A stretch of 30,381 nt of DNA, taken from the NCBI GenBank assembly GCA_048938445.1, contig JBHLME010000050.1, positions 1 through 30,381 of the forward strand, read 5' to 3'. The stretch is from Promethearchaeota archaeon (lineage in GTDB: Archaea; Asgardarchaeota; Lokiarchaeia; Sigyniarchaeales; SOKP01). The position numbers and the translations under genes are program-made. The notes beneath the pieces were generated by a model. The model saw only the letters and a list, made by a program, of their open reading frames with translations. It did no database searches and was not told the DNA's origin. Positions 1,799-7,695 of the stretch are shown here, piece by piece (the first letter of the stretch is position 1; every line of letters starts with the position of its first letter).

Positions 1799-3121
1799 AT
1801 GATTGCGTTGATTGAAAACTCTTTTTATATTGAAACTTATGGTTGTACTTCTAATAAAGCAGATTCACTTATCATGAGGAATGTTTTAATAAAATCAAAT
1901 TATCATCAAACGGATTTTGAAAAAGCACAATTTATCATAATTAATACATGTGCGGTAAAAGAACAAACAGAAAATAAAATAAAAGATAGGTTAAAAACTT
2001 TAAACAATTTATTCAAAAATGATCCTGATCGATATGTTATAATTGCGGGTTGTTTGCCCCATATTACTCCTGAGTATAAAGGTGAGTTAAAAAAAGTAAT
2101 TCCATCCTTCTCAGCGATTATTGATCTAAATAATCTTGAAGACCTCCCCTATATTATTGAAAAACTTAAACATTCAAAAAAAAATCAAATTTTTCTCTCA
2201 AATAAAACTATCGATAAGGCAAGATATTTTATAAATCATCCCAAGGGAAAGATTACAGGAATTGTACCAATATCCGAAGGATGTTTAGGATCTTGCACGT
2301 ATTGTTGCGTTAAAAATGCACGTGGCTCTCTTAATTGCTATGATCCAGAACAAATTGTCAATAATATTGAATATCAATTAAAGCAGGGAATAAAACAAAT
2401 ATATCTAACTTCACAAGATTGTAGTTTATACAATCATGATGGTGTAGAATTAATTCATTTGATCAAAAAAATAGTGGCTCTACCGCAAGACTTTTTTTTA
2501 AGGATTGGGATGATAAATCCTAGTATTTTGATAGATAAAATAGACCAATTAATATCGATATTTAACCTAGATAAGGTTTATCAGTTTTTACATATCCCTA
2601 TTCAATCTGGAAGTAATGAGGTCCTAAAAAGGATGCAAAGACCTTATTTGATATCAGAGATTATTGATAAAATCGAGATATTACGTGAAAAATTTCCTTA
2701 TTTAACCATATCCACGGACATCATATGCGGTTTTCCGGAGGAAACTGAATATGAATTCTACAGGACAATTAATTTTATCAAATGGTTAAGACCTGAGATT
2801 ATCAATATCTCAAAATTTACACCTCGTCCTGGAACTGAAGCTAAAAAAATGAAACAATTAGACAGCAAACTAATAAAAAAGAGATCAATTAGGTTGTCAA
2901 AAATCTTTAGAAACAGTTTAAGTGATATCAATGATAAGTGGAGGGATTGGAGCGGTAAAGTTTTAATCTTACATGAAGGTAGTGGAAAAAATCAAGCATT
3001 TGGGAGAAATTTTGCATATAAAAATATATTTGTAAATGATTATCACGGAAAATATGGTAAGTTTGTTGATATAAAAATTATTAAAGTTGATGGATTTAAC
3101 CTATTTGGAAAACTTATATAA
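1799..3121 (+). CDS. mtaB: tRNA methylthiotransferase, MiaB-like radical SAM (archaeal MtaB/CDKAL1 type)
   Basis: UPF0004 cysteine motifs ETYGC..N, INTCAVK and AGCLP; radical SAM CxxxCxxC (GCLGSCTYC); HIPIQSGS; DIICGFPEET; TRAM-like C-terminus. Confidence 0.9.
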   Translation: MIALIENSFYIETYGCTSNKADSLIMRNVLIKSNYHQTDFEKAQFIIINTCAVKEQTENKIKDRLKTLNNLFKNDPDRYVIIAGCLPHITPEYKGELKKVIPSFSAIIDLNNLEDLPYIIEKLKHSKKNQIFLSNKTIDKARYFINHPKGKITGIVPISEGCLGSCTYCCVKNARGSLNCYDPEQIVNNIEYQLKQGIKQIYLTSQDCSLYNHDGVELIHLIKKIVALPQDFFLRIGMINPSILIDKIDQLISIFNLDKVYQFLHIPIQSGSNEVLKRMQRPYLISEIIDKIEILREKFPYLTISTDIICGFPEETEYEFYRTINFIKWLRPEIINISKFTPRPGTEAKKMKQLDSKLIKKRSIRLSKIFRNSLSDINDKWRDWSGKVLILHEGSGKNQAFGRNFAYKNIFVNDYHGKYGKFVDIKIIKVDGFNLFGKLI

Positions 3122-3135
3122 AAAAATAGAAAAAG
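3121..3135 (-). terminator. Possible oligo-T terminator of the vhuG-vhuA-hdrC-hdrB-vhuU transcript
   Basis: Minus strand reads CTTTTTCTATTTTTT just after the SECIS-like hairpin, at the junction with convergent mtaB. Confidence 0.35.
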
Positions 3136-3160
3136 TTTGTTAGTTTTAACCCAGCAAGGG

Positions 3161-3203
3161 CAAGTCCCGTCCAATCTCGTTTTTTTATTGGACGTTCATC
3201 CTA
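3161..3203 (-). promoter_or_regulatory. SECIS element, eukaryote-like (AUGA...AAA...GA)
   Basis: Minus strand: TAGG-ATGA-A-CGTCCAAT-AAAAAAACGAG-ATTGGACG-G-GA-CTTG. Perfect 8-bp stem (3194-3187 with 3175-3168), A-rich apical loop, UGAN/NGAN quartet at the base; lies about 80 nt 3' of an in-frame UGA. Confidence 0.85.
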
Positions 3204-3345
3204 AACCAACATTTAATTTTCGAGAATAAATCTCTTCACCACTCTCATTAACGACTGTAATGTGAGCGGCACACGATAGTCAACAGTCAAAACAACGGAC
3301 TATCATTTCCAAGACATTTACTACTCCTTCTGGAACATCACTCAT
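3196..3345 (-). CDS. vhuU: Selenocysteine-containing [NiFeSe]-hydrogenase small active-site subunit (VhuU type), 49 aa
   Basis: Hand translation: MSDVPEGVVNVLEMIVRCFDC-U(TGA 3282-3280)-LSCAAHITVVNESGEEIYSRKLNVGLG*. Matches the hydrogenase C-terminal motif R-x-x-D-(P)-[C/U]-x-x-C-x-x-H; AGGTG Shine-Dalgarno upstream; the nearby large subunit lacks this motif; SECIS-like hairpin follows. Confidence 0.92.
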
Positions 3346-3441
3346 GTTTTAGCACCTATCTTATTTTTTTATTGCTTTATTTCGTATAAAAACTTATTTT
3401 TTATCAAAATTAACTTGCTAGTTTATATTTTAATTGTATTT

Positions 3442-4320
3442 CTATGCTATACTGTATTTTTCCAATAGCTCTTTTGGTCTGGTGCGATGAAATTTAATTC
3501 CGATATCATCAGATTTCTCTCCAAATGCTAATGCAAGCAACTCAGTAATATATAAAACTGGTATCCCGAATGTATCTCCTACTAATTTTTCAGCTTTTTT
3601 TTGATTAGTATCAAATTGTTGAAAACAAGCAGGACAGTTGACGATAAGTGCTTCTGCACCCGCGCCGATTGCACTTTTCATTTTATTTGCTAAAATTTGC
3701 ATTGCTGGTTCTTCTTCCGTGTTTCCAACACCAGAGCCACAACAGAGTACTTCTTCTTCATAATCTACAGGAGTTGCTCCTGTGGCCGCAACGATTTCTC
3801 TTAATTTCTTTGGTTTCATTGGATCATCTGTTTGCACTATTTCTGAAGGACGGTTATAATGACATCCCGTATGACATGCTACTTTTAAACCACTTAAATC
3901 TTTTTTGACCTTTTCCTTTATTTTTTCAGCGCCGATATCATGTAAAACTTCAACGAAATGTTTTACATTAATAGTACCTTTAAATTCTCTCCCGATTTGG
4001 CTAAGGATCTTGTTAATCTTTGCTTTTTCATGTTCATCATGGTTTAATTCTTTATTTACAAGTTTGAGTGTTTGAAAGCATCCATTGCATAAGGAGATGA
4101 TGTCTTTCCCTTCATCTTCAGCTATAGTTAAATTTCTTGCACCCATTGCCAACCAACTTTCATGATCTACTGAATTAAAACCAACAGGATCTGGACAGCA
4201 AGCAAAAGGTGCTTCGGACGTCTTTATTCCTAATTTATCAAATACTTTTCTTGCAGATGCTTCAAGGAAAGGAATTCTGTTTCCAATTGTACATCCTTGG
4301 AACATTTTATACTCAGTCAT
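3442..4320 (-). CDS. hdrB: Heterodisulfide reductase subunit B (divergent paralog)
   Basis: Two CCG domains: FQGC, ACCPDP, CNGCF, HTGCH, CCGSG, CPACFQQFD. Confidence 0.9.
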   Translation of the reverse strand: MTEYKMFQGCTIGNRIPFLEASARKVFDKLGIKTSEAPFACCPDPVGFNSVDHESWLAMGARNLTIAEDEGKDIISLCNGCFQTLKLVNKELNHDEHEKAKINKILSQIGREFKGTINVKHFVEVLHDIGAEKIKEKVKKDLSGLKVACHTGCHYNRPSEIVQTDDPMKPKKLREIVAATGATPVDYEEEVLCCGSGVGNTEEEPAMQILANKMKSAIGAGAEALIVNCPACFQQFDTNQKKAEKLVGDTFGIPVLYITELLALAFGEKSDDIGIKFHRTRPKELLEKYSIA

Positions 4321-4333
4321 CTTAATTCCTCCT

Positions 4334-4828
4334 TTATTTCTTTAAAATTATATTTAATTTTGTTGCATTTAAAAGTTTCTGAACCTCTTCTACATTTGGT
4401 TCTTCAATTTTAGGGAGGCCTAATTGTTCTCTTCTTCTTTCTATTGCAGGTTGCGGTGGAATTGCTTTTCCCGCATCATAAATAGTTGAAGCTTGAGTGG
4501 TGTAATAATCAGGGCCTTCTCCGGCAGCTATGCTCATATTTTTTAATACTGTGAATATTTCCGTTAATTCTATCTTCTGTGGACAGACTTCATCACATGT
4601 GTCGCATACAGTACAACCCCATATTGAAAAATTATCTTTTTGTCCCTTGAATACATTTATACCCAAGAATGATAACATTATATTTGCTCTTGGATTATAT
4701 TTATCAGGAGCTACTTTAGATACTGGACATACATCTGTACATCGAGAACACTGATAACAATACTTTAACGCGTCGTGAATATGAGCATCCATTACTTTTT
4801 TTCTTAATTCATAATCAACAGCAACCAT
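4334..4828 (-). CDS. hdrC: Heterodisulfide reductase subunit C (divergent paralog)
   Basis: CYQCSRCTDVCP and WGCTVCDTCDEVCP, R..LGLP motif; directly upstream of hdrB. Confidence 0.88.
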   Translation of the reverse strand: MVAVDYELRKKVMDAHIHDALKYCYQCSRCTDVCPVSKVAPDKYNPRANIMLSFLGINVFKGQKDNFSIWGCTVCDTCDEVCPQKIELTEIFTVLKNMSIAAGEGPDYYTTQASTIYDAGKAIPPQPAIERRREQLGLPKIEEPNVEEVQKLLNATKLNIILKK

Positions 4829-4878
4829 TTTTTTCTTTCACTTTTAATAAATTTATTGTTTTAATAAAAAATTTTATA

Positions 4879-6183
4879 TTATTTTATCCATGGATCTGGT
4901 AATTTCAGTCCATCCAACGCCTTGTCTTCAAAAACTTGCTTGGCAACGTGCATCAAGGATTTCTCGATGCCAGCAATGTTGTGATTCGTCGCAACCAAGA
5001 GGTTAGCTTTCTCACAAATTCCTTGCGCATCAGACCAAATATTATAGAGCAATATTCCTCGTGGTGCTTCTGTCATGCCAACACCGTTCCCAGCCCTTGG
5101 TTCGACATCCAAAGTCTTGCAATCAGGGTTTACGATGTCAGGATCCTTGAGCAGGGTTGCGATCATTTCGATTGCTTCCACGGTCTCGATGATGCGAGCC
5201 CAATGATAGGCAAACGTGTGATGCGGATTGTCTCCAATCTTAGCACGCATATCCTTGAGGGCTTGATCGGCCAATGGTGTTGCCATCTTATCGGCAGCAT
5301 TGACCATTGCCAAACAGTTCGCACGATAAATTCCATCAGGGTAGCCCGCAGGCTTGTAATACATGTGCGTGGCATAAGAATGCTCAGGAATGTGCTCGCC
5401 TAACGCTTCCAAGTAGTTATGATAATCATAATCGATCTTCTTTCCATCGGGAGTCACGATCCGGATATCACCGTCATAAATATCGTGAACGCCATTCTTG
5501 GTCATACCAAAATAATACGTTGGAACGACGCCGACATTCGCGATGACATCAAAATAATCATCAACCACTTTTAAGGCAATTTCAACCGTCTTTTTCGTGA
5601 ATTCAATTTGTTCGTCAACTTGCTTGAGGAACTTGTCCCTTCCTTCTTCGCTCATGGGTTTTTTCATTCCACCAACAATTGCGGAAATGGGATGCACGGA
5701 CTTTCCACCAATTTCAGCGCATAATTTTTGGCCAAAATCCATCATCTTCAAGGCCATCGCACCCACGTCAGGCATTTGATTGATCACGTGCACGACATTT
5801 CTCAATGCAGGATCCGCCATGGGTCCCAATAAGAAGTCAGGTGCCGCCAAGGCATAAAAGTGCAACACGTGTGAACTATATTGCTTGGCATTCATGATCA
5901 ATTGCCGCAACTTGTAAGCGGCGGGAGGGATTTCCACGCCCCATGCATCTTCCACTGCCTTTGTTGGAGTAATGTGGTGGGGGATCGGACAAATGCCGCA
6001 GATTCTCGGGGTAATCCTTGGAATGTGCTCGCAGTAACGTCCTTCCACGAACTTTTCAAAAAATCTCGTCGAAGTGATGTTAAATTGCACGTCCTGCACC
6101 TTTCCATCGTCTCCGATTTTAATGTGCAACCCACCATGTCCTTCTAATCGAGTGACTGGTTCTACTTCAATTTCTTTTACCAT
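4879..6183 (-). CDS. vhuA: Group 3c-type [NiFe]-hydrogenase large subunit lacking the C-terminal CxxC (VhuA/MvhA)
   Basis: EPVTRLEGHG, RFFEKFVEGR, RICGICPIPH (N-terminal Ni motif), HFYALAAPDF, EAPRGIL; ends KLPDPWIK with no DPCxxC. Start moved to ATG 6183, after AAGGAGG. Confidence 0.92.
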   Translation of the reverse strand: MVKEIEVEPVTRLEGHGGLHIKIGDDGKVQDVQFNITSTRFFEKFVEGRYCEHIPRITPRICGICPIPHHITPTKAVEDAWGVEIPPAAYKLRQLIMNAKQYSSHVLHFYALAAPDFLLGPMADPALRNVVHVINQMPDVGAMALKMMDFGQKLCAEIGGKSVHPISAIVGGMKKPMSEEGRDKFLKQVDEQIEFTKKTVEIALKVVDDYFDVIANVGVVPTYYFGMTKNGVHDIYDGDIRIVTPDGKKIDYDYHNYLEALGEHIPEHSYATHMYYKPAGYPDGIYRANCLAMVNAADKMATPLADQALKDMRAKIGDNPHHTFAYHWARIIETVEAIEMIATLLKDPDIVNPDCKTLDVEPRAGNGVGMTEAPRGILLYNIWSDAQGICEKANLLVATNHNIAGIEKSLMHVAKQVFEDKALDGLKLPDPWIK

Positions 6184-6187
6184 TTCT

Positions 6188-7573
6188 TTATTCGCCTCCT
6201 TTATCATGTCGTTTATATCCTAAAGTACTAGCTGCTACGGTAAATCTATTAAATAATCCTGCAGGATCTTTAATCTGATTTAAGACTTCGTCAGGATCTT
6301 TATCAGCACATAACGAACCTAATGTGCTCATAAACTTGGCACCTTGTTCTTTTACACCGATAGGTGGTCCATAACAACCTAAGCATGGAGCATTAGCTTT
6401 ATTGGGACAGATAGTTCCACAACCGGCATGCGTGACGGGTCCTAAACAAATATATCCTTGTTCTAGGAAACAAGTATCCATGGTTGGTAATCCTTCATAA
6501 TCACGCTTCAAATCACCAGGTACCTTATCCGCAACTTCTCTATCACAATGACTACAAACGGTTTTTGAACTATATTTAAAATTTGGATCATCTTTTAACA
6601 AATATAATGCACTTCCAGCAATATTATCAATGATATTATTTCCTGTTGGAGCTACATCTAATGTTAATTTCCCCTTGACTTCCTTAGTTGCAATACTATC
6701 AGGTTCATACGCAAGTCTTTGAATCAAATCTCCACGGAAATAAAAATTACCGATATTTGCAACTCCTAAATATAGATCTAAAAAGTGTTGCAAGCTTGAA
6801 GCTTGTTCAGGTGTTAAGGTATTAACGCTTTCTACAATGCTCTTTAATTTCTCTACTTTTTTACCAGGTTTTGCAGTTGCTCTAAAACATCCAAAGCAAA
6901 CTTCTCCGTTATTAGGACACATTTCTTCGCAACCTGCTGCGGTGATTGACCCATAGCATAAGGTTCCCTTATCTAAGAAGCAGCCTTCTTTAGCTAAAGC
7001 ACATGTATCACAGACGCATTTATTTTTATTAAGAGACTTTGGACCTTCACCAACTACTGTCAGTAAGTAAGAGACTGCGGCTAGAATATTTTCTGTAGTA
7101 GGAGGACATCCAGGAATGAAAACATCCACGTCAACTATATCTTTAGTAAGTATGAGATGATCCTCAAAACCAGGGACATGTACAGTAGGTTCTCCTCCAC
7201 TTTTATCGGCAATACTTTCTACTTGTGAAAATTTTCTCGTGATCAATTCTTCTTTATCAAATAAGTTAGCTAAACCCTTTACACTTCCATGAACCGCGCA
7301 GGCACCTAATGCAACGATAACTTTGCACTTTTTTCTCATTAACTTCACATTAGCAGTATCTTGTTTAGTCCTCGCAACACCTTCAATGAACCCGACCACA
7401 ATCTCACCATCTTTCCTAGCTTCTAATGAATCATGCTTGAAGTCAACTACAGCTGGCCAGTAAACTATCTCGAGTTCTGGAAGTATCGGAAGCAAATTAA
7501 GATGAGCATTCAATAATGATTGATGACATCCCCAACATGAACTTAATTGCATAAAAGCTACTTTAACAGGCAT
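6188..7573 (-). CDS. vhuG: [NiFe]-hydrogenase small subunit (VhuG/MvhG), extended with a duplicated Fe-S domain
   Basis: SSCWGC, FIEG, ALGACAVHG, IPGCPP, then two Cys-rich blocks (C..C...CFLDKG.LCYG..T.AGC...CP and C..C...CFLEQGYICLGPVT.AGC...CP). Probable start ATG 7573. Confidence 0.9.
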   Translation of the reverse strand: MPVKVAFMQLSSCWGCHQSLLNAHLNLLPILPELEIVYWPAVVDFKHDSLEARKDGEIVVGFIEGVARTKQDTANVKLMRKKCKVIVALGACAVHGSVKGLANLFDKEELITRKFSQVESIADKSGGEPTVHVPGFEDHLILTKDIVDVDVFIPGCPPTTENILAAVSYLLTVVGEGPKSLNKNKCVCDTCALAKEGCFLDKGTLCYGSITAAGCEEMCPNNGEVCFGCFRATAKPGKKVEKLKSIVESVNTLTPEQASSLQHFLDLYLGVANIGNFYFRGDLIQRLAYEPDSIATKEVKGKLTLDVAPTGNNIIDNIAGSALYLLKDDPNFKYSSKTVCSHCDREVADKVPGDLKRDYEGLPTMDTCFLEQGYICLGPVTHAGCGTICPNKANAPCLGCYGPPIGVKEQGAKFMSTLGSLCADKDPDEVLNQIKDPAGLFNRFTVAASTLGYKRHDKGGE

Positions 7574-7695
7574 CTTGTTTTTTCTCACATGTTTTTTTGT
7601 AATTTCATTTATAAATAGTAATATTTCGTGTAATATTGAATTTAATAAAAATGTGTTGATTATAATGTGTCTTTTGTAAGCAAGTTTCCAAGTAA

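Follow-up and report, generated by a model that had tools for sequence, protein, structure and literature searches.

A vhuU stop codon within the core of its own lokiSECIS element in a Promethearchaeota genome

How can one codon carry two meanings within a gene of only 50 codons? The question is raised by a stretch of 30,381 nucleotides from a Promethearchaeota archaeon (contig JBHLME010000050.1 of assembly GCA_048938445.1, hereafter the window), in which one short gene contains two in-frame UGA codons, the second of them lying in the AUGA of a hairpin. Promethearchaeota, which in the NCBI taxonomy is a phylum of the Asgard kingdom, is taken here to be the current name for Lokiarchaeota. The explanation that best accounts for the locus as a whole, to which we assign a probability of about 0.85, is that the gene is vhuU and carries a lokiSECIS element, that its distant UGA is recoded as selenocysteine (Sec), and that the UGA of the core is its stop codon.

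Whether such an overlap had been described was left open in the preliminary description of this locus, and the answer is that both the overlap and its explanation are already in print. Mariotti et al. 2016 (PMC4989117), writing on VhuU.1 of Lokiarchaeota and its lokiSECIS, give the overlap together with a minimal-distance explanation, in which stops near the SECIS are not recodable, by analogy with the minimal distance of eukaryotes; Huang et al. 2024 (PMC11227280) state that UGA stops of Lokiarchaeia often overlap the AUGA. These papers, and a 2026 review whose available part holds nothing further on the overlap of stop and core, are quoted throughout from the accessible portions of their text. 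A literature search for the term lokiSECIS returned Mariotti 2016 alone. Added here are the frequency with which the overlap is retained, its apparent dispensability, an 84-nt spacing that seems to be set by the protein, and a bracketing of the distance rule.

The vhuU gene and its neighbourhood

The gene stands at the end of a cluster on the reverse strand and faces a convergent gene. The relevant features are:

3442 to 7588, reverse strand: upstream genes on the same strand as vhuU (vhuG-like, vhuA, hdrC and hdrB)
6188 to 7588, reverse strand: vhuG-like gene; top NCBIfam match VhuG, below the equivalog cut-off
4879 to 6207, reverse strand: vhuA; top NCBIfam match VhuA, below the equivalog cut-off
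4334 to 4828, reverse strand: hdrC; top NCBIfam match HdrC, below the equivalog cut-off
3442 to 4320, reverse strand: hdrB; top NCBIfam match HdrB, below the equivalog cut-off
3196 to 3345, reverse strand: coding sequence of vhuU; 49 sense codons, one of them for Sec, and a stop
3280 to 3282, reverse strand: Sec codon UGA, codon 22 of vhuU, within the motif DCULSCAAH
1799 to 3121, forward strand: convergent radical-SAM/UPF0004 gene; it stops 17 nt short of the 3′ boundary of the SECIS element

The minus-strand sequence and its translation place the start ATG at 3345, where it opens a 50-codon frame that closes with the TGA at 3198–3196 (codon 50). All coordinates given in the preliminary description, which had placed the second in-frame UGA in the AUGA of the hairpin, are correct, and the distance between the two UGAs, which it had estimated at about 80 nt, measures 84 nt from first base to first base. 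The top NCBIfam match of the protein is VhuU (NF041786), with 47.5 bits against a curated cut-off of 70 for a profile built on methanogen proteins. Its context is that expected of VhuU: a small separate gene encodes a C-terminal Ni-binding motif with Sec beside vhuA and vhuG, and the VhuA of the window is devoid of the C-terminal Ni-binding motif. The gene is vhuU; its product is the small C-terminal piece, with Sec in it, of the large subunit of a [NiFe] hydrogenase. Large subunits of [NiFe] hydrogenases undergo removal, at maturation, of a C-terminal extension that follows the His of the C-terminal motif. In the window, the frame stays open for 50 codons after the second UGA (51 with the next stop).

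The stops of vhuU and of the radical-SAM gene are 74 nt apart, and the SECIS element fills nearly all of this gap. Gene order differs between the two clusters of this genome: it is vhuG-vhuA-hdrC-hdrB-vhuU in the window (3196–7588, reverse strand) and vhuA-vhuU-hdrC-hdrB in the second cluster (L002, contig C176 of the same genome), where the SECIS lies between vhuU and hdrC.

The hairpin at the 3′ end of vhuU

The element, which spans approximately 3211–3138, folds as a single sequence into a three-way junction whose internal loop holds GGAUGA. Its parts are given below in the order in which they are transcribed:

3203 to 3211, reverse strand: 5′ strand of helix I (the lower helix), formed in minimum-energy folds by the final vhuU sense codons
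3196 to 3199, reverse strand: AUGA of the SECIS core; its UGA (3198–3196) doubles as the vhuU stop
3168 to 3194, reverse strand: upper stem and apical loop; 3194–3187 pairs with 3175–3168, and the loop is 3186–3176
3165 to 3166, reverse strand: 3′ GA of the core quartet, separated from the upper stem by one G
3149 to 3161, reverse strand: mini-hairpin of 4 bp whose 5-nt loop contains GC, located after the 3′ GA and before the 3′ strand of helix I
3138 to 3146, reverse strand: 3′ strand of helix I, pairing with 3211–3203
3120 to 3134, reverse strand: two T-runs just 3′ of the element, a putative archaeal transcription stop

One A separates the AUGA from the upper stem, which consists of eight Watson–Crick pairs plus an A/G apposition and is capped by an A-rich loop of 11 nt, A7CGAG. 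RNAfold, which the preliminary description had proposed as a check, recovers the upper stem, although the stability of the fold lends the hairpin modest support by itself: z is −2.07 over 141 nt (4 of 200 shuffles are as stable) and −1.46 over 56 nt (13 of 200). Comparison with relatives is decisive for the hairpin. In a MAFFT alignment of 51 vhuU 3′ ends, made without fitting to a structure, pairing holds for 86.9% of the cells and both sides have changed in 17 of 22 pairs, a degree of pairing that is reached by none of 500 shuffles and falls to at most 48% when the partners are slid by one to three columns. Changes on both sides affect all nine pairs of the upper stem and six of the nine pairs of helix I. 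RNAalifold, run on the MAFFT alignment, finds the upper stem, with compensation in 9 of the 10 predicted pairs, and part of the mini-hairpin; the lower helix is absent from that result and was therefore named by hand from single-sequence folds, then tested on the 51-row alignment. When 104 sequences of the overlap type are folded singly (L022 and L025, truncated at a contig end or interrupted by Ns, were kept in the alignment and left out of the folds), the upper stem appears in 97, the lower helix in 100, the mini-hairpin in 102 and all three in 94. Covariation is seen in all three helices.

Conservation extends to unpaired positions. The last base of the loop is G in 47 of 51 rows, the 3′ position of the quartet reads GA in 33 and AA in 12, and the loop of the mini-hairpin contains GC in 46. 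The base that precedes the UGA is A in 45 of the 51 orthologues (U in four, C in one, G in one) even though this base falls in the third place of a Gly codon, which points to selection on the RNA.

The published lokiSECIS and Asgard type I designs provide a list of features against which the hairpin can be read, and each is present: an AUGA before the upper stem; a stem of about 9 bp (7–15 in the model) and an apical loop of 11 nt (8–20); a loop that starts with As and whose last base is G, usually preceded by A; GA or AA past the stem; and a location at the 3′ end of a gene that contains a Sec UGA in frame. The GAA/A bulge and the run of G–C pairs of the Methanococcales type are absent from the sequence as judged by eye. 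The preliminary description, which had recognized an AUGA/GA core and apical As and had set the element apart from the Methanococcales type, was right on this point. The covariance-model check that it proposed gave no such support: Rfam yielded no match over the whole window at gathering thresholds and, with E up to 10 over 3100–3300, no SECIS family and only chance-level snoRNA-like matches.

A genome-wide view of the motif was obtained with a strict scan that allows no stem mismatch and may therefore miss elements: it returned 35 sites in the 4.63-Mb genome against 7 in reversed or complemented controls. Eleven of the 35 are credible lokiSECIS elements, of which the one on contig C24 is tied to no upstream frame. 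A permissive version of the scan was dropped, its 220 sites standing against 107 in controls. Outside vhuU, where SECIS sites on contigs C20, C24, C53, C113, C117 and C226 come into play, the mini-hairpin is found at seven of nine SECIS elements of the genome, as compared with 56 of 2,000 random 40-mers; its length across the SECIS elements of the genome is 4–6 bp, and its loop nearly always contains GC.

The T-runs that follow the element and the lack of an Rfam SECIS match would also suit a transcription terminator, or another kind of 3′ element, in which the in-frame AUGA is a coincidence. We consider this extremely improbable, however: the same design (AUGA, stem, A-rich loop ending in G, then GA or AA) stands behind other genes of the genome with in-frame UGAs, the hairpin moves with vhuU in orthologues whose stop is elsewhere, it covaries, and it bears every listed feature of the published lokiSECIS. 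The hairpin is, on comparative grounds, the eukaryote-like lokiSECIS of vhuU, with a predicted role in directing Sec insertion.

Probable termination at the second UGA and the overlap in relatives

Two readings of UGA in this mRNA can be accommodated by a simple sequence of events. With the ribosome at codon 22, 84 nt upstream, the element would be folded and free to direct Sec insertion, as the known role of its family suggests. With the ribosome at the second UGA, the lower helix would already be melted, the core would occupy the A site and the upper stem would lie in the entry channel; no SECIS would then be left on that mRNA and the codon would be read as a stop, in line with the published model. 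What follows the second UGA in orthologues is consistent with termination there. Of 51 aligned orthologues, 16 have a 1-nt insertion immediately after it; the distance to the next in-frame stop varies between 2 and 69 codons; and some orthologues have TAA or TAG in place of this UGA. That the sequence 3′ of the second UGA is non-coding, and that translation would end at this codon, is thus supported by comparison of the genes. The claim of the preliminary description that the first UGA is recoded and the core UGA terminates fits these three observations and matches the model of Mariotti 2016 as presented in the accessible part of that paper.

The second UGA could nevertheless be leaky, some ribosomes inserting Sec or a near-cognate residue and running on for 51 codons, which would be tolerated as the residues past the conserved His are removed at maturation. 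Leakiness would explain why the overlap is a property of vhuU: among the 11 credible SECIS sites of the genome, only the two vhuU genes stop inside the core. The open frame past the stop in the window and the removal of the hydrogenase extension are also in its favour. In orthologues, however, indels break the frame and no frame is conserved past the UGA, so any extension would be without conserved function, and we regard leakage as unlikely.

At eight other SECIS genes of the genome the stop lies 0–20 nt upstream of the core and is TAA in five, TAG in two and TGA in one, this last abutting the AUGA. Such a stop (TGAATGA) ends a VhuD-like gene (contig C204, near position 5125, forward strand) and represents a second way of placing a UGA stop beside a SECIS core. 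The other end of the range is given by a family of small genes with four in-frame TGAs, described below, in which a conserved in-frame UGA is located 47–55 nt, and once 69 nt, upstream of the core in nine relatives; in the member encoded by this genome we counted 53 nt from the sequence, and the residues that follow this UGA are conserved. Recoding therefore seems, from the spacing of these genes, to work from about 47 nt upward, and the distance rule is bracketed by stops 0–20 nt from the core and by conserved in-frame UGAs from 47 nt up. The minimal UGA-to-SECIS spacing of eukaryotes, on which Martin et al. worked in 1996 (cited in Mariotti et al. 2016), is reportedly some tens of nucleotides.

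The preliminary description had also proposed that the C-terminal peptide doubles as an mRNA spacer. Physically it does separate the two codons, but it does not appear to be sized for that purpose. Of 65 genes, 61 have the Sec UGA and the stop 84 nt apart, among them 10 of the 13 with a SECIS further downstream, and this distance recurs in 116 of 123 distinct ends; since the spacing is the same with or without overlap, the peptide is not sized as a spacer. Its length seems to be set by the function of the protein rather than by the SECIS.

The frequency of the overlap was established in 61 related genomes, 56 of which contain vhuU orthologues; the five without a match are 66–99% complete. Of 65 vhuU genes of the Sec type, defined by an in-frame TGA at the position of codon 22, 51 have their stop inside the SECIS core, a count that overstates the support for the overlap, these genomes being kin and their genes not independent. 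By family the overlap is present in 43 of 44 genes in f1, 4 of 13 in f2, 2 of 2 in f6 and 2 of 2 in f7, and in none of three in f4 or the one in f5. The single exception in f1 (L018) has a premature TAA upstream and an otherwise intact GGATGA element. With 58 further distinct loci the overlap is found in 106 of 123 distinct 3′ ends, a sample biased towards this family, as the added loci came from the best 80 records most like the query. Left out of these counts are L003–L005 (weak matches that are not vhuU), L064 (a vhuU split over two frames) and L065, a homologue with Cys in place of Sec that ends in TAA. The second vhuU of this genome, on another contig, encodes a protein 94% identical to the first and has the same GGATGA end with compensatory changes in the stem.

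In the 13 of 65 orthologues whose SECIS is separate from the stop, the stop is TAA in 11, TAG in one and a separate TGA in one, and the core lies 8–33 nt past it; these cores were assigned by eye from folds, and two of them read AUGC. Three of the extra loci read TTATAGGATGA: the gene is closed by a TAG lying one codon ahead, right before the AUGA, and the UGA of the core is out of frame. Orthologues ending in TAA or TAG with the SECIS elsewhere, one of the observations that the preliminary description had named as damaging to its case, thus exist, and with the three adjacent TAGs they show that the overlap is not required; in most genes the stop is a TGA in the core, and covariation and an 84-nt spacing are found as well. 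Across the sequences compared, the overlap is inherited and common in the family, yet dispensable.

Preservation in nearly all f1 genes, presence in three other families and the strong preference for A before the UGA could be taken as marks of a selected regulatory device, one that, for example, lets ribosomes pass the last 28 codons only one by one or couples termination to refolding of the SECIS. Variants with an adjacent TAG or a downstream SECIS keep an intact gene, however, and a 74-nt gap between stops that is nearly filled by the element fits simple compaction, which makes such a device distinctly unlikely. The most likely reading of the overlap is tight packing of the 3′ end, not a device dedicated to regulation.

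RNA-library contigs from two studies, 85–95% like the window, span about 3170–3350 and run into the hairpins of relatives; they come from those relatives, DNA carry-over is possible, and they speak neither for transcription of this locus nor for the place where translation ends. No single sequencing run contained more than 0.04 of the sampled words.

Neither the building of the lower helix from coding sequence nor the mini-hairpin turned up in word searches of the main texts of PMC4989117 and PMC11227280 (figures and supplements aside), as far as these were available, and both features may be new. They invite a larger reading, which taken jointly we put forward tentatively and hold to be rather doubtful. 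The element would be a kink-turn three-way junction that extends beyond the published stem-loop and draws on the three or four final sense codons for its lower helix; the mini-hairpin with its GC loop, common to most SECIS elements of the genome, could dock an archaeal SECIS-binding factor; the stop within the core would survive only in vhuU because the peptide past the conserved His is removed and leakage at the second UGA is costless; and the zone in which UGA is a stop would measure less than about 47 nt.

Selenocysteine genes in the genome and comparison with known systems

Components of Sec synthesis were sought in the same assembly. SepSecS is present (471.7 bits, above the cut-off), a PSTK-like gene scores under its cut-off, and a 349-codon open frame with its own SECIS is a candidate selD, read so from length and position alone. 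ARAGORN found 40 tRNAs in the assembly, none of them for Sec, and the best Rfam match to tRNA-Sec (RF01852) there has 39.5 bits against a cut-off of 47. By eye, a candidate for tRNA-Sec, with the anticodon loop CUUCAAA (UCA anticodon) and a long variable arm, can be recognized at a contig end beside SepSecS (L165:1440–1571, the end of contig C108); an identical sequence opens contig C157, next to SepSecS. In this candidate about 40 extra bases seem to separate the 5′ acceptor strand from the remainder; these may be an intron or a contig-end assembly problem.

The gene with four in-frame TGAs (L151:1955–2179, forward strand, corresponding to 12554–12778 of contig C53) has 74 codons and two CxxC pairs and is followed by a lokiSECIS. 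Homologues occur in 13 of the 61 related genomes, 12 of them with four in-frame TGAs and one with five; in 11 parsed homologues the TGAs occupy identical places, with identity down to 30%. It has no significant Pfam family (the top match, DUF2020, reaches 18.1 bits against a cut-off of 25), and the Asgard selenoprotein families listed in the accessible parts of Huang et al. 2024 (PMC11227280) and of the 2026 review do not include it. The conservation of its TGAs makes a new four-Sec selenoprotein family possible. On the same contig, two adjacent paralogues of about 150 codons (L151:815–1258 and L151:1462–1830, forward strand), neither with a Pfam match, each have their own SECIS, with three in-frame TGAs in one and two in the other, clustered in one short motif; homologues are found in 40 of 61 relatives, nearly all with two or three in-frame TGAs, and the pair could be members of the published Prx-like family.

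At the vhuU locus, then, a single codon would be read in two ways within one short mRNA, depending on nothing but how far it lies from the recoding signal. The case bears on the origin of the eukaryotic Sec system, a point already made in 2016. The closest known counterpart is the lokiSECIS of VhuU.1 (PMC4989117, as described in its accessible text), with which the element shares an AUGA before a stem of about 9 bp, an 11-nt loop with As at its start and a G at its end, and its place at the end of vhuU; AA is reported past the stem in that element, whereas the window has GA. It likewise agrees with the Asgard type I eSECIS-like model of PMC11227280, in the portion seen, in its GA_[G/A]A core, upper stem of 7–15 bp and loop of 8–20 nt. 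Huang et al. 2024 (PMC11227280) further note [U/C]GG_C[C/U][A/G] pairs in the lower stems of frhA and vhuU elements; the stretch from the 3′ GA to the lower stem, an internal loop in the available part of that paper, is a conserved hairpin in the folds of the window.

Like the eukaryotic SECIS, with its kink-turn core in the 3′ UTR, the element has an AUGA/GA core and apical As and is expected to act at a distance. Unlike it, it has a shorter stem, overlaps the coding sequence and matches no Rfam SECIS model, and SBP2 is not reported in Asgard archaea in the accessible parts of PMC4989117 and PMC11227280. The archaeal SECIS model of Mariotti et al. 2016 found no element in the Loki genes, according to the available text of PMC4989117. 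The SECIS of Methanococcales and Methanopyrus differs from that of the window in its GAA_A bulge and run of G–C pairs, but it, too, is located at the 3′ end of the orthologous vhuU, where it has the same presumed role.
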